Origin: Podarcis gaigeae
Lineage: Eukaryota
Reading direction: 5' to 3' (one strand)
Assembly (NCBI GenBank): GCA_964106915.2
Contig: OZ066919.1
DNA: 64,000 bases
The notes beneath the pieces are model-generated. The model searched no databases. It saw only the letters and a list, made by a program, of their open reading frames with translations, and was not told the origin of the DNA. Positions 1 to 12,875 of this stretch are shown here, piece after piece. The first letter of the stretch is position 1, and every line of letters starts with the position of its first letter. The translations under genes and the position numbers were made by a program.

Positions 1-440
1 AGCTTGCAGGCTAAGATGCCAACGTTCGATCTACGATGCTTGGCCTTTCGAGGATTTCCCCCTTGTAAGTTCTGAACACTGCTGAAATAAAACTTTTAAA
101 AACTGGATGAATTTATAATGCAATATTTTCTCTCTCCCCTGCCACCTGACCCGCCTTTGGCCTGTGACAATTCTTTCTCAGTTTTTGCTAACAATGCATT
201 CCAGAGAGCATGAGACGTACAACAGGAACTCAGCTGTCGAAAGGCACAGAGCTGCCTTTCTAACAAGCCTCGGTTTTCTGCCTGCCCCTCTCCGATTATA
301 TTTTTGTGCTCTCATGATTAGCTCCCGGTAGGAGCCAAGCTATGAATCTCTCCCCAGCCCTGGCTTTTTATTAGTATGGCCCATGCAGGTTTGGTGAGAT
401 GGAACAGCTATAACTCTGAGATGCTGAATAGGAAACCTTC

Positions 441-455
441 ATTTGCATGAAAATG
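441..455 (+). promoter_or_regulatory. Octamer / near Oct-Sox composite motif in a repeat-free block
   Basis: ATTTGCATGAAAATG: a perfect octamer, one mismatch from ATTTGCATGACAATG. Confidence 0.3.
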
Positions 456-2680
456 AGGACGCCCTGCTGGCCACCGTGCCTGGATCAACTAATAAATATT
501 TGCAGCATTTTGTTCTCATTAAATATATGCAGACACGAGAAGCACAAACAATGTCTCCTTCTGGCACGCAGCCTCGGCGGAAGGCCTGGGGAAGGACACT
601 GTGCAACCAAGGAAAAGCTCTTCAGGAATAATTTAGAAGAAACAAAAATCCATTAGCTGGGCTGAGAGGAGTCAACCCACAACCCACAGAAACAGCTTTG
701 CCTAGTTTGGCTTTCAACCCCATCAGTCAGTGACAGCCCCACGTGCATTTGCTAGAACATGCCTACAAGATGTGGCTTTTGATATGGCATTGCAGACATG
801 GCTCTCAGATAAATTTATGGTGTCTCACTGAGTGCCAAAGTGGTTATGCAAACAGACTTTGCATCCCTTGAAAATGCAGGGCAGTGACCTCAGATCTGAA
901 AGGCTTCTGGCTCACACAGTAAGATCAGATGCTTGTAGCTGGATCGCTTTCTCCCTTTGCACTCTCGCTGTGGTCTCCTGTGGCTTGATCCTGTGAGCTG
1001 CTGCACTGAAGTAGATCTGACTCATGAGAGCTTGAGCTGTGATCCTGTTGTGGTTTGTGTTGTATTGTGGACAAATAAAAAAAGGGTTCAACCTTACTTG
1101 GATAGCACATTCATTTTCCCCTACCATGAAAATAGATACGGAAGATTATAGAAAATAGATTATGGAAAACGATATGTTATCCTGTTGGTTAAGATTAAAA
1201 ATAGCAAACACATTCTCTGAGTACTTATGCTTATGCAGGCAGCATGGCCCCTTCCACACACAAGAGGGAGGTGTCATCAGCCTTAGAGAACTCCCCAATC
1301 TTTGCAGAAGCGCATATCATGTTTAGGGGGAAATAATGTGGGGAGTGGGCAGCCCGAAACAGCCCAATGCAGACTGAGTGTGCTCTGTGGCCATGGAGTG
1401 CTGACTGACTGTTGGAAGGGGAATAGAAAACCAGGAGGTGGGGGATATAACAGAACATCCTGGAATTGGACATGGCTAGCTGGATGAAACCCTGAGCAGA
1501 AGTACTCTATACTGCAGGACTCTGTTGCAGGTCCCACTTATATTTCATAAACTACCAATAAAATGGCATATTATGATGTCCACTAAAGACTCCAGGAAGT
1601 CTGAAAATGCTACAGAGACAGATCTGGTTGGTAGTACTTTTTCCACTCTGCGCTCCAGTAATTACTTGTCAGTTTTCAGATTTGAATAGACACTGGCCAT
1701 ATTCATTCTTCCTCATTAGCGGCTTGGCTCTTCACAATGACTAATCATTGATGAGCAATCAAGATTATGTAGAAATGCAGCTTACACCTACGTCCTAGGA
1801 TGGATGTTGAGACAAGTATTCTGCCTGTGTGGATGTGTGGAATAAGAGTGAGTCTGGCTGACAAGGGGCAAGAAATTTGAGTTTTTGCAGCTGGCTAGGG
1901 AAAAAGGCAAGCTGGGAAGGCTGCTGTTACTTCCAAGGACAAATGCTGTTTCATTGTAAGTGCTTCCTTTCTGTGTGCCAACCTGCACCTTGGTTTCATT
2001 GCTAGATTAATCAATTAAAATTTTACTTGATCAATCCATGGAAGCCATTTTTAGTCAGTGGGGACACATTTTAATCAATAAGGTCATTTCCTGCACTGGC
2101 TCAAGAAGTCACATCCAAATGTTGTATTAATATTCAATGTATCCCTCAATTATGAAAGAATTCAATGACAACTTATTATGCAACTAATATTCTTTAATAG
2201 GTTGACAGTCCTACAAAAGTGGGAAATGGATTAAAACGTACTCATCCCTATGCAGAATCTGGGAATGGCATGATGAATGTCTACCAGTGGCTGCTTATCT
2301 TTATATGAGTGTCTCATAACGTTGCACATATCCCTTAAGAGGGCCCAAGTAAATGTTGCAGACAGGCAAAAGGTCAACAGGGGCGGAATATAGTGAACAG
2401 TATTCTTTACACTCAAGTCAATCTCAGTGTGGTAGCTGTCATCTAGGTTGATGCATCTATAAGCTATGAATGCATGAGTCTTTAAAAATGGATGTGGAAA
2501 GCCTGACTCTGTTGCTGGGCAGTAAGAGATTCATATGCATCCTCGCAAATACCTTGCACGGTGCAGCCCATTCTTCATGGGAGCTTTACCTAGAAGGCAG
2601 TGCACTGTTCACATTTCTTTCGGTGACAGACTGTGCTTTGGGGATATGGACACACATAGCTTTTCAAGGCACATCCGTCA

Positions 2681-2710
2681 GCACACACACACACACATGC
2701 ACACACACAC
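2681..2710. repeat. (CA)n microsatellite, interrupted
   Basis: Direct reading. Confidence 0.9.
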
Positions 2711-3964
2711 TTTCTTTTCTTTAATAGCTTTTAATAATTAAGTCTAGCTGAGAAGCTTTGATTGCATTATACACTTAGTGGGTTAATTAGAAACCTCTAA
2801 ATAAGTTGCAAACTGGTTCCTCCGGACTCGGCCCATTGGTCATTCCCCCAGCTAAAATGCTTGATTCTCTGGAGGGCTCGGGTTTGAGAATTGAATGGAA
2901 GTAATTGCTACCAATAAGTAAGACTACAAAGTTAAGTAATTTAATTTTGCCCCCTCCCTCTTCCCCAAACCCCCAGGAACAGCTGTGTAACACTATCAAT
3001 AAAAATCCCTTTAAAAGGTTAAGTGGGTGTTCTATTGGAAATGCTTAGAATCAGGGGAAATCCAGTAAAGATGTTTAGCAGAGTGATAAGGTTCTCATTG
3101 AATGAATGTTCTCCCTCACCCATCAAAGTCTTCTTTGTGATTGCTTGCATGTCTTCCATGTATACCCATGCAGCTAACTTTTCCTTCTTGGAGGGCTCTG
3201 CTTCCTCCCAAGAATGCTCGTCTCCCCTATTTGTATTATTGGCAGCACAAGAAGAGATATTTGCAAAGCAATGGGAGGTGGCTGGCTTTGGAGCCTGTCC
3301 TACTCATTGCTTATGATGATTAGCTAGTCAACTGAGATCTCACAAGGTTCTGCAGCATTTGTGAGATCTTGGCAGCTCCAATCTTGGGAGACCTGGGATT
3401 CTGGGTTTCCCTGGAGTCAGGGCATTCAAATGGGAGCAACAGCACCAGGTGGGAAGTTGTGTCATGGAAAGCCAGGACAAACCACCAAGCGGAGCAAGGA
3501 GCTAGGTAGCAATCACAACTCTCCCCTCCCCTGTTATTGCTCCCATTTTAACCAACATTATAGCAGTCAATTTCGGGGGGCGGGGGGCAGGGAATCAAAG
3601 TTGTGGCCATTTAGCTCCAGCACTCCTTAGCTGCCACATAGAAGATGCACATGAGAAAAAACTCCTCAACTCACTTCTCCACCTTGAAACCAGCAATGCT
3701 TTTGGCTCAATCTCCTTATCAATGAAGCATGCTCAAAGATTGGCTTTTATTAACTGACTCCTTGCTAGAGCTTTCTGCAAGTCCTGCTGAGCTGCAGGCA
3801 GTTTAAAGTTCCTTTAACTGTCAAGCTTATTGCGCCTACCTCTATGATCACAACTGCCTGCCAAGTTGCTTCTTTTAAATTGGCCACCTGTAATGAAGCC
3901 TGGGAGTTTAGTTGCCTTTCGTGCAGGGGATGTTTTCTTTTAAAAGGTAATCAGTTGTTGTTTT

Positions 3965-4130
3965 TACATGTGTATCTTTCACTTCCTTCATAGAGCTCAG
4001 AGTGGTGTTTTAGCTTCACAGCACCCCCTGAGATAGACAAGCTGAGAGATAGAGAGCTGCATAGCAAGAAGTCCTACTAAGATTAATAACTTGACAGGGG
4101 TTGCATCTGGGTCTCCCAATCTATGCTCAA
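3965..4130 (-). mobile_element. Degraded MIR/Squam3-like SINE
   Basis: Weak similarity to 56455-56682 (GAGCTCAGAGTGG, TCACAGCACCCCCTGAGATAG, GCTGAGAGA). Confidence 0.4.
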
Positions 4131-5136
4131 CATCTTAGCAGAATTCAAGTCAGTCCACTATCCATCCAGGTAACTGAACCTTTTTTTTTTTGCCAATTGT
4201 GTCAGGGTATTTTGCAGTTGATGGGCATTGATGTCCTAGCCTCAGCTCCCCCAGTGAATTGTATTATTGATAATACCTCATGAAGCCAATGCAGAGTACA
4301 GGGCAGGAATCATCACTCTTGCTCTGGATGGTTTAACACGTTCACCTTTCTCCATGCTCCCCACACTTCTGTTGGCACCTTGTGAAAGCTTTCACAAAAA
4401 GCTTTTCACTTTTCCATTCTATATTGGCTCTCTCTTAAGTCCCAAACTACCTACCATTTCATAATCACTCTACAATGCATCCAACTGCTCGCTCTCTCTG
4501 CTATCAATAACATCTGCTCTTGCTTAATTGTATCAGAACACCTGACAAATACTCCATTTCCTCAATCTCTCCTAATATTCCATTCCTAAGCCATGCTTGA
4601 ACTCTCCTTATTACATAGTAGGGACTGTTCCTTCCAGGCACTGCAGGAGATAATAAAAAAAATGAAGCGCTTGTAGTATTTTCATGCTGTTAAGCCCAAC
4701 ATGTTATTTTAGGCCAGGGTTTCTTAAAATTGGATGGCAGGTCCCCAAACTGCAACAATGAAAACAACAGCAATTGTTGCGTGTTGAGGTCCCCAATCCA
4801 CCCCCCAAAATAACTCACAACGGACACGTAATTTTTGTTTAAGATTTTTGGCATGATTTTGGCCACAACTTTATTAAAATACAAACTGTGAGTGGTTGTT
4901 TAGGCATTGGTTAAGACTATCTGTCCCCCCGCCTGGGGACAGAACTGACTTCCGGGCACCACCGAAAGACAGTGCGGGGGAAAGCAAGTCGGGGAAGAAT
5001 TGGAGCTGAGATACAGACCCTCAACTCTCACCCGCCTGCTCCCCGAAGGCTTGCCGGCCCTAGTCCCATTCCAGGGATTGGACGAAAAGATGGCAAGCCC
5101 CAGGATTCCTTTAACGGAATTCCCTTTCCGCAGCAA

Positions 5137-5208
5137 CCATGGAGGGGCAGGCCCAGCCTATCCTGAACCCCTCCATGGAGGGGTAGGCCCAGCCTATCCT
5201 AAACCCCT
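5137..5208. repeat. 36-bp tandem duplication inside copy A
   Basis: CCATGGAGGGG(C/T)AGGCCCAGCCTATCCT(G/A)AACCCCT x2 with 2 mismatches. Confidence 0.95.
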
Positions 5209-5271
5209 CCTCCACCAGATTTATAACCAATGCCTAACCACAACCTTACAAGTTGTGACGATTTGCTACGC

Positions 5272-5324
5272 AGTAGGCAAAAACCACCCAGCCAGCCAAT
5301 TTGCCAGGTGGAAAAATTCCTACC
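5272..5324 (-). ncRNA. Predicted ENE-like RNA element (U-rich internal loop between two helices), copy A
   Basis: Minus-strand RNA GGUAGG-AAUUUUU-CCACCUGGC-(AAAUUGGCUG)-GCUGGGUGG-UUUUUG-CCUACU. The layout matches the KSHV PAN ENE. Confidence 0.55.
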
Positions 5325-5653
5325 AGGCCCCTGCTCAAAGGCAGACAACCCCATGACAGGCATAGCAAGGTCAATGCAACAACCCCTTATTCTAGGGCGG
5401 GTGGGCGGGTGATCCGTTGCACGCAGCAAAAGAGAAAGTACAAGGCTGCGTGCAGAGTATTTAAACCTTTTACCCCTCCCACCAAAATTGCAACATAACT
5501 TTTGCCCCAGCAACTCGGCAATCCAATCAATGCCCCCTAGCCATCTTGGAGAACTTACCCAGCAACAAAGGGGTGGCTCAGTAGACCCCACCGCAACACG
5601 TGCTCTCCCTGAAGGAGAACACGCTTTGTCCTATATCTGCTGCATACAAAGAT

Positions 5654-5669
5654 CCAGCAGATGGCAGCA
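5654..5669 (+). promoter_or_regulatory. Candidate CTCF site
   Basis: CCAGCAGATGGCAGCA fits the CTCF core consensus CCASYAGRKGGCRS. Motif match only. Confidence 0.45.
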
Positions 5670-6825
5670 TGGAATGTTTTTGTGTGTTATATATTCCATT
5701 TTGTAAATAGATTTGATGCAGTGTTCAAAAGCATTTTCCTGAAATACAGCACTTTATCCAGAAGAAAGCTGAAAGTAAGCACAGATATCCTGATATCTTA
5801 TAGTTTTAAGTGACTTGGTTAAACATAAGGTGATCTAGTCCCATTGGAGTAAACTCCAATAGTTTTTGGCAAACACTGGGGTTTCCTTGCAATGGAAATT
5901 AGCTTTAAGTCCTTATAATTATATATGGATTACTATCTATGGGTTGGGCATGAGATAGATGGGTGGATGTGCTGCAGTTGGTGGACATCTGGCCCATAGG
6001 TCTTTAAAAGGATATTTCCCCCTTTGTTGTTTGGATTCAATGTCTGTGATACCAAACGCATCCCTATGCCATGTGATTTCTTTTTGTAGAAGCTGTAATA
6101 TCACTACTTTTTTGATAAGATTAGGGATATGGCTGGTATTTTGCTGGGTTCTAGACAAGGGGAAACTAGCATTTCCATGCGAAGGCAGTTGGGGTCCCTG
6201 TGCATCAGCCCTCATTGAAATCTTGCCACTTGCTATCCTTCATCACACAGAAAACACTAATAGTATTGCCGTGTCTCCACTTGCTCTTGCTTGTGAGATA
6301 TTAATGTGAAAGATAATATATTGGCCAGAATCAATACTTTTCCTGACTTAGTAAAGATCACCATCCATCAGTCCCTTCTTTCATTTGATAAAATCCTCTT
6401 ATGTCACTTTTACTTAGACTGATGAGATCACAGTGGCCCTTTTGTTTCATGATCAATGGAGCCAAGATGAAATATTGTCCTATAAATTAGCACCTCTGGA
6501 TCAAGACTATGAGATTCCCCCAATGGCTGCCAAGAGGACTCACCAAACATCATAATAAAGCACAGCACAGTCTAATGAGTTAATTAATTTAGAGCTGGAA
6601 TTTGCTGCACTAACACATGCTGGGAATTAGCAATATAATATCCAAACAATATACCATGAACTCTGTTTGGTGGTTCCTCAAGAATCTTGAGTCAAGATGT
6701 ACAGACTTTAGTCCAAATTATTCCTACACACAGAGGTCAACTAAATATGATGATGATGAAACACAGGTTACCAAATCAGTTTGTTTTCTCTCTCTTATAA
6801 TATGAAGGTAAAACCTAGAAGGCAT

Positions 6826-7662
6826 TTGCGTGGGCAGGCGGAGTCCCCCAAACCCTGGGTGGCCCCCGTGTGGAATAACGACACAATACAATGTGCTATG
6901 GGATTGAAATTGACCACACCTTTATTATGTTTCAGATGTGGGTAGATCTTGGCTCAGGCATTGGACGTTCATCCCTCCCAGTCCCCCGCCGGGGACCTGG
7001 GGAACATCAGGATTATTCAGTTTGTGGGGGGGATGGGCTGGCTCTGGAGAACATATGTTCAAGCAGAGAGAGCCCGCCCCCATTACGCCGTCATCACAGG
7101 GGAGAGCAATGACAACCTCTAGGTGTACGGCCAAAGCCTCCCCTCAAACAACCCCTTTAACAGGGAACCCTGGTATCGCCGCCACAAAGAGGAGGGGGGG
7201 CATGGGTCATTGCTGCATGCCCCCCCCCATTTAGGGAAGATAAACTAAAGGATTCTGCCCAAGGCCTGATACCACCAAAGTTGTGACGTTTTGCTATGGG
7301 AAAGGCAAACCTGCCAATGCAGGAAAATTCCATTCCGGCTCTTCAACAGCGACCTTGACCTAGCAGCGCCCGCGTACCTGTGGAGAAAAGGTTAACCTGC
7401 AAAAGAAGCCTTAACTGAGGGTGGGTAGGGTGGGAGAAGCTCTGGAGCCAACTGACAATTCCCAGGTAAGATCCTCCGCCTATTGTGTGGGCAGGTGTTC
7501 CCTCCCCCTACCTGGCCTGATCACCTTGGCAACGCCTCCACAGGTGGGATTGGGCAACTGGCTGAGGTAGGTGGAGACCTCCAGGTATCCCACCTGGGGA
7601 AGGCGAAGCCAAGCCTGTGCTAATGGTGCCTCATAGGGTCCAGGGGGCTGCGTGCGACCCCC
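6826..7662 (-). mobile_element. GC-rich LTR-like non-coding retroelement unit, copy B (diverged relative of copy A)
   Basis: Shares with copy A, in the same order: TTGCGTG end, CCACA(A/C)CTTTATT poly(A) signal block (AATAAA on minus at 6921-6926), AGGCATTGG, GTCCCC-CGCC-GGGGAC hairpin, CCTTTAAC, AAGTTGTGACG.TTTGCTA, AGGCAAA...GGAAAATTCC and GGGYGGG tracts. Right boundary approximate. Confidence 0.65.
7299..7336 (-). ncRNA. Predicted ENE-like RNA element, copy B
   Basis: Minus-strand RNA GGAAUGG-AAUUUU-CCUGC-(AUUG)-GCAGG-UUUG-CCUUUCC. The stem sequences differ from copy A but pairing is kept. Confidence 0.5.
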
Positions 7663-10600
7663 ATTTAATGTGGGGAGTGGTCATTGTAGCAGATATCTGT
7701 GGGGCGCTTAACCCACTAATTCTTTCTTGCAAAACTCACCCCAAATTTCTTTGCACTGATTACCCCTCAGTCAGACTCTGAAACTAGAAGTGAGTTCAGT
7801 TGGGGGGGGGGGGGAAGGAATTGTATTGGAGAGCAGATGGGGAGAAAATAATTGCAAGAAATAATTGACAGATCTGGAGGAGTTGAGTCACTGCCATCCA
7901 CTCAGAAGTGCTCTTGCCCAATCAACATGCAGTTAAGACTATGTTTTTGCTGAGCAAATGTCTAGTTTAAGTTTCAGTGCATTCCATAGCACATCCCACC
8001 AAAGGATATATTGGAAGCCAAAGAAGAGAAAGATGCTGCCTCTCAGCAGTGAATCGGGTGGGGGGTAGTGTTGCAGACACATGATGCTTCCACATACCAG
8101 CCCCAGCACTGTCCCTTCCTGTCCCTCTTGCTCAGTCCCTGAAGCACCCACCCTCCTGCCCTTGAATGGCAGTAGAGGTAAGAGGGGAAGATTTTTTTGT
8201 CTGTAGTCTTGTTGGCCATGGGAAACTTGGGTCCCCTTCCCACACTCTATTCTTTATATGGGGGAAGGCAGAGTAGTATGAGAGTGGTGAGCCCCCTGAG
8301 ACACCCATAGCATAGCTCTTGATGGGGAGGCTGCTGGCTGCCTCCCACCTCTGCCAGAACCTGCACAGTTTGAAATGGCTGCAGATCTCATTTAATAAAA
8401 TGGTGGCCCTAGTTATTCATTATCCATCTCTCTCCTCTTTCTTCTGGATATGGGAACAGTAGGGATCCTTCCAAAATCTGATTGGATATTTCCACCTGAT
8501 ATTACCTGCTCTTGATTCTCAGATTTGTGATGGCTTCTCGCCAAAATTATGCTAAAACAAATATTTCCGGGTAAATATGATCTGAATAGTTTCTATACAA
8601 GTGTGGCTGAACCCACATCCTTTGATGACTTCTCTAGAACAACTCTGGTTCATAGTGGGATTGTGTGTGTGTTATGGAAAACTGGAACTTGAACAAACTC
8701 TGCAGAATCAAAACCCAGGATTTAAATTTGGACTGCATTAGCACAAACAGCTGTAATCAAATGATTTTATATACAGTTACAACTGTAGTCACATATGTTT
8801 GGTCTGATTTTCAGAATTTTTTTCTGTGCAAAAATGCTAGCAATGAGCTAGTCTGGTATTTTCTAAAGTTTCCTAAAGTTCTGTACAAGTTTCATACTTT
8901 TAAAGTTACAGATAATTTCAGTGCAGCTAGCAGACACACACTTACACACCCACGTTGTGAGCTATTTGGTGAGAAGTAGTTATTGTGCATACAACAAATG
9001 CCAGAGGAAATTACAGAGCTCCTTCTTTTAAACATAGAAAATAACCTCAATCTCTTGAAGTGAGAAAGCAATAAATACAATGTGGCCCATAAAGTTGTAC
9101 ACCATAGGGTAAAGTACATCCTGAGAATAGATACCAATGGATGGATGCTGCTGTTTTCTAGCTAATATGCCCCTGTTGCATCATTTGCTGTTCAGTGACA
9201 TTGAAGTATCTTGAAACAACCAGCCTGGATTGAATGATGAATGATGCAGCGCAGCTCGAAGGTTCAGCTCTTTCTTTTTTTAGCCTGGCAATTTGGCAGG
9301 GATTTGTTCCAAACAAGTTTACCGCTGTTCCCAAAGTGCACCTGTCAGGGTTCAAGGTAAACAAAACTTTGCTGTTGATTCTTTTTGTACATAAACCACA
9401 GGACTTCACCTTCTTTCTGGCTACATAGCTGCCACTTCACTGTAGCAGAGGGCTAAGAGCTACAGAAACTTTGGTACCAAGAACTTTGAGCAAGGGTGCC
9501 CATGTAGCCAGGCATCCCAGCATGGAATGTTTGTCCCATCCCTGTCACTGCCCACACTGTGCCCTCCCTATCTGAGCTGCTGCCGCTGCCACAGATTGTG
9601 TGCCCAAATAAATCTAGGGACCCTATTCTTCAAGCATTACCAGAGCCCGTCACAGGGAAATATGCAACTGCTCCACTTCCATAATCAGGACTTTGTGTTC
9701 CTCGGCTGACAGCAAAGGAGGAGGTAAATAGCTGCTTATTGCTTGGCTTCTCATTCCTCTGAAAAAGAGATAGCGGTGAAGTGATGAGTTACACACCTGT
9801 CTTATTGAAGGTGAGAGCTTGTAGTGTGATTCTAACATTTTCTCCCTTTCTTATTCTGAAGGTTATTCTTGCAACTTTAATTGAGATGATATATTAATAG
9901 CTGAAATATCTTTCACATTTTTCAGTGGATTTTCCAGAGCCTATCATTATTAATGTGTCAACAGGTCTTCTCTTTCTCTTCAGCTCCAGATGGTGGCCTG
10001 AGGTATTTTTATTTTTATTACTTTAAAATTAGGTTGTTCATAAAATAATTATTATTAATAATAATGTTGACTCTTCCGTTAACACCACTGCTTCAAATAA
10101 ACTCAGCACCTTTCTTCCAATGTTGTTAATAAGGTAGCAGTGAAACTATAAGAATGAGGGGGCGGGCAGAATGCCTTGGTCTGTGTTGTCAGAATAAAGA
10201 AGGAGGTATCATACCCCCACCCAACTTTTTTATCCAAACTATTCTGGACTCATTGCCTCTTTACCCATACACAATGAAGTCAGGTTTAGATTAGGGATGT
10301 GTGATGGATTTCATTTCTGTGAATTCTGATGCAAACTACCATGATCCACTGATGTGCAGATTGAAACAAAATTATAATTTGGATTTTGAACATCTCCAAA
10401 TTGTGTGGTGCAATGCTTGGCTAAAGAATATATGTGCCAAAATGCATGCTTTAGGATACAACCTGTTTTAAAAGGTTTACACTGAGATAATGTGTACATT
10501 CCTTTAGTAGTGCACCTGGTGCCATTCTAGTACAGGCAACTCCCCATTCAAGTGGGGGTTACATTCCAGGTCTCCACACGCATAAACAAAACTCACATAA

Positions 10601-10901
10601 GTGGAGAGCTTGCTGCAGTACATATAGCTTCCTGCCCAACAGCTGCTAAGTGGGGTAGTACAGCAGTAGCAAGAGCTTCCACATGCCATTTTGGAGCACT
10701 TGTTGTTTTGGCTCACTGCTGTTCCCTTCGGGCTCTGGGGAGGGTCTCCTTGTGAGCCACAAGACTTTCCAGCTCTCTCCCACCATTTCAGGTTAGAACT
10801 GAATTATTTATTTATTCCCCAGTGCCACACATATACACGGTCACCTGCGAGTCAATAGCATATAAATTGTGGGTGCCTTCTAGGAAATTATGAGTGTCTT
10901 T

Positions 10902-11330
10902 TAGGGATGGATGAATCTGTCAACTTTGGACAAATTAGAAACAGGGAGAAATACCAATCTTAAATTCAGTTTACCACATTTCTACATCACATTGTGATTT
11001 TTTAAAAAAATCATCATTTTTAATTCATCAGCATTGTAGTGCATATTCTAATATACTCAATTTAAATGTAACTTTGCCTATTCTATACATTTTTGCAAGC
11101 AGCATTTTAATGTATTTTTAATGAATTGACACAGTTTTATGCACTGTTTCTCCCAACGTTCCCATTTTTGTACATATGCTTTAGTTGGAAAGCTGTTCTG
11201 CAAAAATTTGGAGAAGTGTGAATTTTCAGGAAGGCCATAACACCAAGTGCCTTTCTGGTCTCAGGTCTTGATCTTGGTGAGTAAATGCATTCATGAATAG
11301 GTCAAAATGCTGCTTATTTTGAATTTTCTT
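10902..11330. mobile_element. Old AT-rich non-autonomous DNA-transposon-like repeat
   Basis: Starts TAGGGATGGATGAATCTGTC and is colinear with 46835-47222. A related fragment lies at about 10292-10490. Confidence 0.5.
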
Positions 11331-11395
11331 CAGCCATAACAAGAAGCTACATCATGGACTACCATGTCCTCCAGGATTTGAGATCTCACCTAGAT

Positions 11396-11536
11396 CAGAT
11401 GTGGGGAACCTGTGGCCCTCCTGATGTTGCTGGACTCCCACTCTCATCAGCTCCAGCCAGCCAGCCAGCTCAATAGTCAGGGATAATGGGAGTTGTAGTC
11501 CAATAACATCTGAAAGGCCGTAAATTCCGTAGTCCC
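11396..11536. mobile_element. ~140-bp palindromic hAT-like MITE (lizard GGACTACAACTCCCA family)
   Basis: Inverted arms GATGTTGCTGGACT...GGGAGTTGTAGTCCAATAACATC. Further copies at 19089-19203, 29298-29421, 45179-45292 and 50645-50772. Confidence 0.75.
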
Positions 11537-12875
11537 AATGCAGAAGCTTGATAAGGAGCTGGAGCGCGGTGGCTCTCACTCAAGTAATGCCAGGAAGAAC
11601 AGGTGTTGTGCCTGTGTTGCTACAATAGACTAACAGAGAATACTTATTTAGTTTTAAATAAGTTTACCATTGCTGCTGGTCTCTGTAAGTCCCTCAAGGC
11701 CACCATACAATTTACTGTAGATGGAAAACTTGGTCATAGCTTGGGATAACCTGGTGGCAACTTATTTTGAGTGCAATCTTTCTGTTTTGGACAGAAATAT
11801 AACTGCACAGGGCAGCAAATGAACCACACTGCTGTATTGTCATAGCATTAGCTCAACAGCAAGCCAAGAGATATGTGTCATTATGTTAATGCACTTGTCT
11901 GCCTCAGAACAGTGTCCCCAGCACTCCTATCCATCATGTAAATGCCTTGCAGAAACAGTCTTCTGGATTCTCTTTGTGTACTTGCTGTCACTGCTATGGG
12001 AAGTAATGGCCTGAAATCATTCACACCATTAGTTTTAATGGATTAGAACTGTGTCATTTAAGGTAAGGTACAGGTGCGAGTGGGCTTGCAGAGTGCATCT
12101 CTACCCACATGCCACTGGCTAGTGTTACTCTGAGGGTTAAAAAGAAAATGAAAAGAAGAAGAAGACATTTTCCTCATCACCTTGGGAATGAAAGTGATGC
12201 ATTTTCCAACTGTCCCCACTGGAGGTCAGTGGAACATTGTTTACCATTGTTTGCTAGAACAAAGAAACTGCAAAACAGTGACATTTCAAGGGTGAATGTA
12301 TATCTTTTTCAGTGTCTTTGTTATTGTACATCTACAGATAATTCTGTAAATTGTCCATAATGCCTAGTTTTAATGGTCACCATTCCATGCTTTATGGGAC
12401 ATTAAATCAGTGTTTGTTTTATTGGCATAATTGCTTATTTAGATGCACAGAAACTGCCAGAAAAAGGTGCCCCCTTGTGCTCTCTAGGTGCTTGGGGTAT
12501 AACTTAATAATATGCAAAGCACAGTGGTGTGTTTTAAAATAATTCTCTAAAGGCAGAAAATGCCTGGGCTCCTGCCCCCTATATTCGGTACCGTCTTCCC
12601 AACTAAGCCTGGTGCTCTAGAAAGAATGTCTCTCATGGCTGCATCAACTCTGTATCAGCAGTGTACTTGAAAATGGTGCTAATCATTGATGCAATAGCAT
12701 TGCAGTACTTAATGACTGGAGCCAGGCAGTTCAGGGTGCAATCCTGTGGAGAGCATCTGAAACACAAATAAAAATAAATTTGCTGAAGGAGGCAACATCA
12801 GGCACTGTAGGTGGCAGTGCCAGACATCATGAAAAAAACAAAGTAATGAAATAAAACTATAAAACAGGAGCTGTA

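Follow-up and report, generated by a model that had tools for sequence, protein, structure and literature searches.

Ngaro-like retrotransposons with an SGNH hydrolase, of the Xenopus DIRS-53_XT type, have gag-like, RT/RH, tyrosine recombinase (YR) and SGNH open reading frames and A1-B1-A2-B2 repeats (PMC9210276), and isolated end units, the solo AB units, are described in Cafeteria (PMC8547959). Both features were found again in the elements reported here. They differ in that a single-copy spacer of 165-190 bp divides A2 from B2 and bears structured motifs, whereas the available text of these two accounts describes no RNA structure of the repeats.

The ENEs of KSHV PAN, of plant and fungal transposable elements and of Evade, as far as the accessible parts of the sources go (PMC7583470, PMC12501189), share with a hairpin found here an internal loop rich in U that is flanked by two stems and closed by G-C pairs, and the ENE of Evade is likewise placed in a single-copy spacer, ahead of the terminal repeat containing the poly(A) signal. 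Unlike those ENEs, the present candidate has a single U-loop, an extra A.G plus an A-U/G-C/A.C step beneath it and only 3-5 U pairs, comes with a conserved long-range helix that reaches the 3′ end, and is hosted by a vertebrate YR element; its triplex is putative. Identical, duplicated poly(A) signals, one of them suppressed by RNA structure, are known from retroviruses (HIV-1 polyA hairpin, long R of HTLV-1 and BLV), where long-range folding also shortens distances near the 3′ end, according to the consulted portion of PMC12789967. Both traits have likely counterparts here. In contrast to retroviruses, the masking arm would lie outside the repeat, some 400 nt upstream, both signals stand in the 3′ part of the RNA, and context, not promoter proximity or U1, would decide between them.

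Two solo end units and their coding relatives

In the window, that is, the whole stretch of 64,000 nucleotides of Podarcis gaigeae DNA that was analysed, two units were delimited, and copy A was divided as follows.

4777-5628, minus strand: copy A, a solo A+spacer+B unit of 852 bp, with ends set by comparison of family copies
5408-5628, minus strand: repeat A, also the 5′ end (A1) of coding elements; 221 bp, about 99% identical to the 5′ ends of L101, L103 and L104, the match stopping at 5408
5458-5465, minus strand: TATA-like box in A, seen in the sequence, with a like word at the same place in related families
5240-5407, minus strand: single-copy spacer between A2 and B2, 168 bp, at whose edges A1 and B1 homology end
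4777-5239, minus strand: repeat B, 463 bp, of which intact elements have two (B1, B2)
6826-7685, minus strand: copy B, 860 bp, a solo unit from another Ngaro family, whose coding relatives carry B1-A2-spacer-B2

Copy A was found at 98-100% identity in at least 40 further places, from 4392 candidates, and copy B at 88-91% in at least 39, from 1739 candidates, each family having at least 40 copies in the genome. Local duplication as the origin of the two copies is ruled out, as they belong to two separate multi-copy families. The family of copy A is young, and copy B is an older solo unit.

Intact relatives show the order A1-gag-RT/RH-YR-hydrolase-B1-A2-spacer-B2. One family-A locus runs upstream into a gag-like ORF, RT/RH, a tyrosine recombinase, an SGNH hydrolase and then a second B. 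The ORFs of this locus matched RVT_1 (E 6.8e-14), Phage_integrase (E 9.6e-05, below the curated cut-off) and Lipase_GDSL (E 6.7e-4, for the SGNH hydrolase after the YR), and no match to the methyltransferase family was obtained in four ORFs. PF13472 was present on 7 of 21 homologues, and the closest named proteins are from lizards (36-62% identity). When 10-kb loci were fetched, 11 out of 20 had the B1/B2 pair, and 10 of those 11 had A1/A2 as well. We conclude that copies A and B are solo end units (A+spacer+B) of two families of tyrosine-recombinase retrotransposons, almost certainly Ngaro.

No target-site duplication was seen in the flanks inspected at 30 family-A loci and at both window units, only a 2-3 nt A-rich overlap. 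An ERV solo LTR identity was dropped, as there are no TG...CA ends and no duplication. The A+spacer+B form of the window units is the one expected to result from recombination between A1 and A2, and the solo copies are probably products of such events, carrying the B2 state only; the reciprocal A1-ORFs-B form was also found in the genome. Judging from the TATA-like box at 5458-5465, transcription would start about 25-30 nt downstream of it.

B1 and B2 are 100% identical in locus L061, and in L074-L228 they vary in concert along the whole of B (370-440 bp), before and after the poly(A) signal. Position-specific differences between them were seen only in copies that apparently duplicate one insertion. 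This concerted variation indicates that B is recopied whole, which is left unexplained both by the model favoured below and by a simple splint replication model.

Several side observations were made on these families and on the window. Hydrolase-bearing Ngaro elements are abundant in the genome (1450-1900 first-look candidates per search), and one Ngaro family has about 100 listed copies of identical score; contig C32 is strongly enriched. The element starts (5599-5625, minus strand) with a hairpin, and its stem is conserved from family to family. At 5137-5208 a hairpin is duplicated in tandem (36 bp), a feature that belongs to family A only and occurs in both B1 and B2 of L061. Distant metagenome relatives (L229, L230 and L232, 30-35% identity) have a hairpin and then UGGCGG after the stop codon, as before B1 here. 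A hairpin at 11423-11510, with a weak match to mir-5408 (32 bits, gathering 90), is probably a common repeat.

Long-range helices and the U-rich loop

A first-pass annotation had proposed that two nested long-range helices place the poly(A) site of each copy next to a U-rich, ENE-like loop. The features concerned are listed below, with the means by which each was established.

5224-5237, minus strand: 5′ arm of helix 1, at the start of B (coordinate check, alignment, RNAalifold)
4900-4913, minus strand: 3′ arm of helix 1 (coordinate check, alignment)
7257-7269, minus strand: 5′ arm of helix 1 in copy B, partner 6954-6966 (coordinate check, family-B copies)
5105-5120, minus strand: conserved hairpin with a GUUAAA loop, within the helix-1 domain (3 of 6 pairs changed on both sides; recovered by RNAalifold)
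5250-5259, minus strand: 5′ arm of helix 2, at the spacer end, only before B2 (coordinate check, alignment, ensemble folds)
4862-4871, minus strand: 3′ arm of helix 2, comprising the last two A of AAUAAA and 8 nt (coordinate check, alignment)
7277-7287, minus strand: 5′ arm of helix 2 in copy B, partner 6913-6923 (coordinate check)
4870-4875, minus strand: AAUAAA of copy A, accompanied by UGUA (4883-4880) and by GU-rich sequence downstream; kept intact by all 30 family-A copies examined
6921-6926, minus strand: AAUAAA of copy B (coordinate check)
5271-5325, minus strand: ENE-like hairpin with lower stem, A.G mismatch, U5/U5 internal loop and upper stem (local minimum-energy fold; lower-stem covariation)
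7299-7336, minus strand: ENE-like hairpin of copy B, with shorter U tracts (folds)

Helix 1 was found as described. In copy A, 4900-4913 and 5224-5237 are exact reverse complements over 14 bp, and a perfect long-range repeat of at least 14 bp arose in 2 of 2000 dinucleotide shuffles of unit A. In copy B, 6954-6964 and 7259-7269 pair over 11 bp, interrupted by one mismatch and showing the U-A to C-G swap, and the helix extends to 12/13 pairs in 22 of 30 family-B copies. It links the beginning of B to a segment 25-40 nt ahead of AAUAAA, and as both arms lie inside B it occurs in both B1 and B2. It had been taken as independent support for the ENE, a role it cannot fill since it is also present in B1, where there is no U-rich loop. 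The intervening 300 nt or so are enclosed by the pairing, as had been suggested, but do not simply loop out, as they contain further covarying hairpins. The GUUAAA loop of one of these (5105-5120, and its equivalents in the B repeats of relatives) is nearly invariant, and a complementary word, UUAA(C/U), stands 12-20 nt past helix 2 in several clades, weakly so in copy A's clade; a contact of this loop with the RNA 3′ end is possible.

For the comparative analysis, families were gathered by protein searches in one genome and the family-B clade was added separately, giving an alignment of 17 spacer+B2 stretches, with 1-2 per family and 9 of the 17 rows from copy A's clade. The pairings proved to be conserved across these diverged families. 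When the structure was imposed, 93.8% of cells paired and 11 of 37 pairs were changed on both sides, compared to 5.3 in shuffles (0 of 500 reached 11) and 1-4 in slid controls, counts that are not probabilities, since the 16-18 elements share ancestry and themselves supplied the structure. Three of the 13 helix-1 pairs were changed on both sides over the 17 sequences, and in one clade (L208) the central pair is C-G, which breaks a CCAAT word on both arms. RNAalifold, which had been put forward as a check, recovered helix 1, the lower stem of the loop and the GUUAAA hairpin; it did not choose helix 2, however, pairing its 5′ arm locally, and it added a 4-bp pairing beside the lower stem. Folding z was −7.65 for copy A, with helices 1 and 2 in the minimum-energy fold, and −3.49 for copy B, with helix 1 only. 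A shortage of private changes in the helix arms was not seen in solo copies (P 0.2-0.9), which suggests that constraint acts on replicating elements and not on host solo copies.

Helix 2 also lies where it was claimed to lie in copy A (5250-5259/4862-4871, 10 bp, one G.U); a 170-nt spacer would contain a partner of this kind by chance with a probability of about 0.001 (at most one G.U) to 0.02 (any G.U). In the window, copy B has one private mismatch in the 3′ arm, a sign of decay, and all 11 of the 11 pairs form in 15 of 30 family-B copies. None of the 10 pairs covaries and 8 never vary, both arms being invariant in sequence; no family with altered helix-2 arms was found, so that zero covariation reflects a lack of variation rather than a refutation. 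The G.U pair is kept in 17 of 17 sequences, which points to pairing of the sense strand. The AAUAAA motif itself is present in 113 of 118 oriented loci (11 clusters at 88%). Helix 2 and the U-rich loop occur only before B2 because both begin in the single-copy spacer, and with the arm and the loop about 11 nt apart in that spacer their juxtaposition is specific. That helix 2 brings the poly(A) site beside the loop is thus supported in part: its probability exceeds 0.5 in 14 of 16 elements, but there is no covariation and the consensus fold puts the 5′ arm in a local hairpin. For the family-B clade the predicted probability of helix 2 is only 0.03-0.11. As helix 2 covers the last two to three A of AAUAAA, it could block the B2 signal instead of serving it; in ensemble folds the last three A are less open at B2 than at B1 in most elements, owing to this cover.

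A local minimum-energy fold of ENE-like shape was obtained for 17 of 17 sequences (z −1.7 to −3.5), and the shape fits the description of ENEs in the accessible parts of PMC7583470, PMC12501189 and PMC13541005. U tracts, read by eye, are of 3-5 residues on the 5′ strand and 3-7 on the 3′ strand; both strands hold at least 3 U in all 17, between G-C closing pairs, with only about 3 per strand in the family-B clade, and the upper stem varies. In the lower stem, 5 of 8 pairs were changed on both sides. This stem had a probability above 0.5 in long context in 12 of 16 elements, 10 of 16 jointly with helix 2, and in copy A and its family the ENE-like stem reached only 0.02-0.27. We are confident that helix 1 and the loop are real RNA structure. 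That the loop is a working ENE, as its shape and position suggest, we hold to be evenly poised.

Rfam gave no relevant match in positions 1-12000 of the window (E≤5) or in 7 loci (E≤2). MALAT1-type ENEs have a similar layout of stem and U tracts, then a short A-run; whereas they use a genomic A-rich third strand and have a downstream tRNA-like element, the A-run here is of 2-4 A and variable, no tRNA-like element was matched in Rfam, and AAUAAA is conserved instead. A genomic third strand of that type was dropped on these grounds, as were, by eye and Rfam, an Sm site and hammerhead or HDV ribozymes.

No sequence holding the units was found on record as RNA. Four raw RNA runs of a related organism, at 85% likeness, gave 387 reads in both directions, at least 91% of which diverge beyond the stretch; their ends did not cluster, and poly(A) was absent from the 24 of 66 loose ends listed; a motif seen in these reads is absent from this genome. 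A metagenome scan yielded five short contigs, ending about 170-740 nt from the hydrolase match, with no recognisable helix-2 arm. The viral collection contained no protein relative, and none of its 93 matches to a 15-mer had partner arms.

A third helix upstream of B1

Intact elements have a further pairing, helix 3, whose 5′ arm is absent from solo units. That arm lies upstream of B1, around or overlapping the hydrolase stop codon, and is complementary to the 15-30 nt before AAUAAA; its sequence shifts clade by clade with that of its partner.

4884-4899, minus strand: 3′ arm of helix 3, fully paired only in B1 (folds, duplex energies)

In the solo or B2 context the 3′ arm forms only about 6 bp, with 5240-5245. 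Because the register shifts between clades, helix 3 was scored by duplex energy and not by column pair counts. The mean energy with the element's own partner was −28.6 kcal/mol, compared to −17.6 across clades, and the own partner beat 200 of 200 shuffles in 13 of 18 elements, although it was the best of all cross-clade partners in only 6 of 18. The helix is weak in copy A's clade, where four of five members were beaten by 8-18 of 200 shuffles, and in L215. In the family-B clade, the partner was predicted from the 3′ arm and then located. In 9 of 18 elements the pairing extends as far as the AAU of AAUAAA.

The AAU and the 15 nt that precede the signal were more open in the B2 than in the B1 context in 15 of 16 elements, with a mean unpaired value of 0.66 and 0.33, respectively. 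From these predicted folds, it is rather likely that the B1 poly(A) signal is damped by helix 3.

A proposed two-state fold and its alternatives

We favour the explanation that the helices form a two-state RNA fold, in which the poly(A) signal of B1 would be hidden and that of B2 usable, with its tail beside the U-rich loop; on the folds and alignments above, the case for it is about balanced. RNA to be copied into DNA would have to pass the B1 signal, since rebuilding of the ends would require the B1/A2 junction, in analogy to the ICR of DIRS-1, which the consulted portion of PMC7192593 gives as essential. At B1, helix 3 would stack on helix 1 and cover the upstream element, in several clades the AAU too, and cleavage would thereby be damped. 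At B2, the spacer supplies a short arm only, and the upstream element would stay open. Helix 2 would then anchor the sequence immediately 3′ of AAUAAA at a distance of about 11 nt from the loop's lower stem. It is from the lower-stem side that the third strand enters an ENE, starting from antiparallel Watson-Crick pairing with the 3′ U strand. The 3-5 U.A-U triples so formed may retard removal of the poly(A) tail from full-length RNA.

The foremost competing reading is a role in packaging or priming. The helices would again be real RNA structure, with B as a domain recognised by Gag or RT, helix 2 as a site of fixed sequence for a protein or primer, and the U-rich loop as a mismatch stack bound by protein instead of a poly(A) clamp. 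Such a role would account for helix-2 arms that are invariant beyond what pairing alone requires, for the invariant GUUAAA loop within B, and for B1 and B2 evolving together over their whole length, B being recopied as a unit; the primer of the DIRS order is, moreover, unknown according to the part of PMC7192593 at hand. Yet it leaves unexplained why helix 3 ends at AAUAAA and is present at B1 only, and why the strands of the loop are U-rich between G-C closing pairs, and we consider it unlikely.

Alternatively, helix 2 may be a self-priming duplex: the RNA 3′ end, cut after AAUAAA, would fold onto the spacer and start minus-strand DNA, and B2 would be wholly rebuilt from B1. Its 5′ arm and the left border of B are indeed 0-17 nt apart, no B1/B2 difference specific to a position was observed among separate insertions, and a 3′ hairpin primer has been suggested for DIRS-1 (PMC7192593, in the portion available). 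Recopying of arm and linker from the primer should, however, erase the G.U pair that is kept in 17 of 17 sequences, and the poly(A) tail would have to be removed first, which makes this distinctly unlikely.

That the three final A of AAUAAA are in most elements less open at B2 than at B1 would be expected if helix 2 masked B2 too, both signals being damped. Coding mRNAs would then end at B1 and genomic RNA elsewhere, and the loop would mainly stabilise an RNA of about 570 nt from the A2 or solo promoter; every solo unit does have the TATA-like box, the loop and AAUAAA in order. But the terminal A-U pairs of helix 2 can fray, and the solos, having no shortage of private arm changes (P 0.2-0.9), give no sign of selection on their RNAs, so that we find this most improbable. 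Finally, that the inverted repeats are DNA-level sites without an RNA role (opposed CCAAT boxes, in view of the ATTGG/CCAAT inside helix 1 in most families, or cDNA annealing sites, DIRS-1 cDNA being single-stranded in the accessible part of PMC7192593) is barely credible, as compensatory changes flank the CCAAT word and in L208 replace it, sense-strand G.U pairs recur, and the folding z of copy A is −7.65.

Under the two-state fold that we favour, one repeat with two exchangeable upstream partners might constitute a poly(A)-site switch in vertebrate Ngaro elements, the stop-codon arm silencing the first signal and the spacer arm clamping the second near an ENE, a proposal that we make tentatively. 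The literature searched, which did not extend to the main ENE survey and its supplements, held nothing linking Ngaro or DIRS repeats to an ENE or to poly(A) control, no account of how full-length RNA passes through two identical poly(A) signals in split-repeat (Ngaro/PAT) elements, and none of an RNA role of the repeats. The 2016 ENE survey (Tycowski) reportedly includes slime-mould and stickleback elements, and a YR element could already be listed in its supplements. Ngaro elements, transposon ENEs and structural poly(A) masking are each already known; within the literature searched, neither their combination nor any RNA structure of Ngaro repeats was found.

The analysis provides named helices together with compensatory variants that occur naturally in many families within one genome. 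Should the loop be an ENE, poly(A)-clamping elements would extend to a large group of vertebrate retrotransposons, with a built-in delivery of the tail to the loop across about 400 nt. If the proposed switch is true, a tyrosine-recombinase retrotransposon would possess an ENE with its own docking helix, and solo units, in their thousands, would provide promoter-ENE-poly(A) cassettes ready for use.
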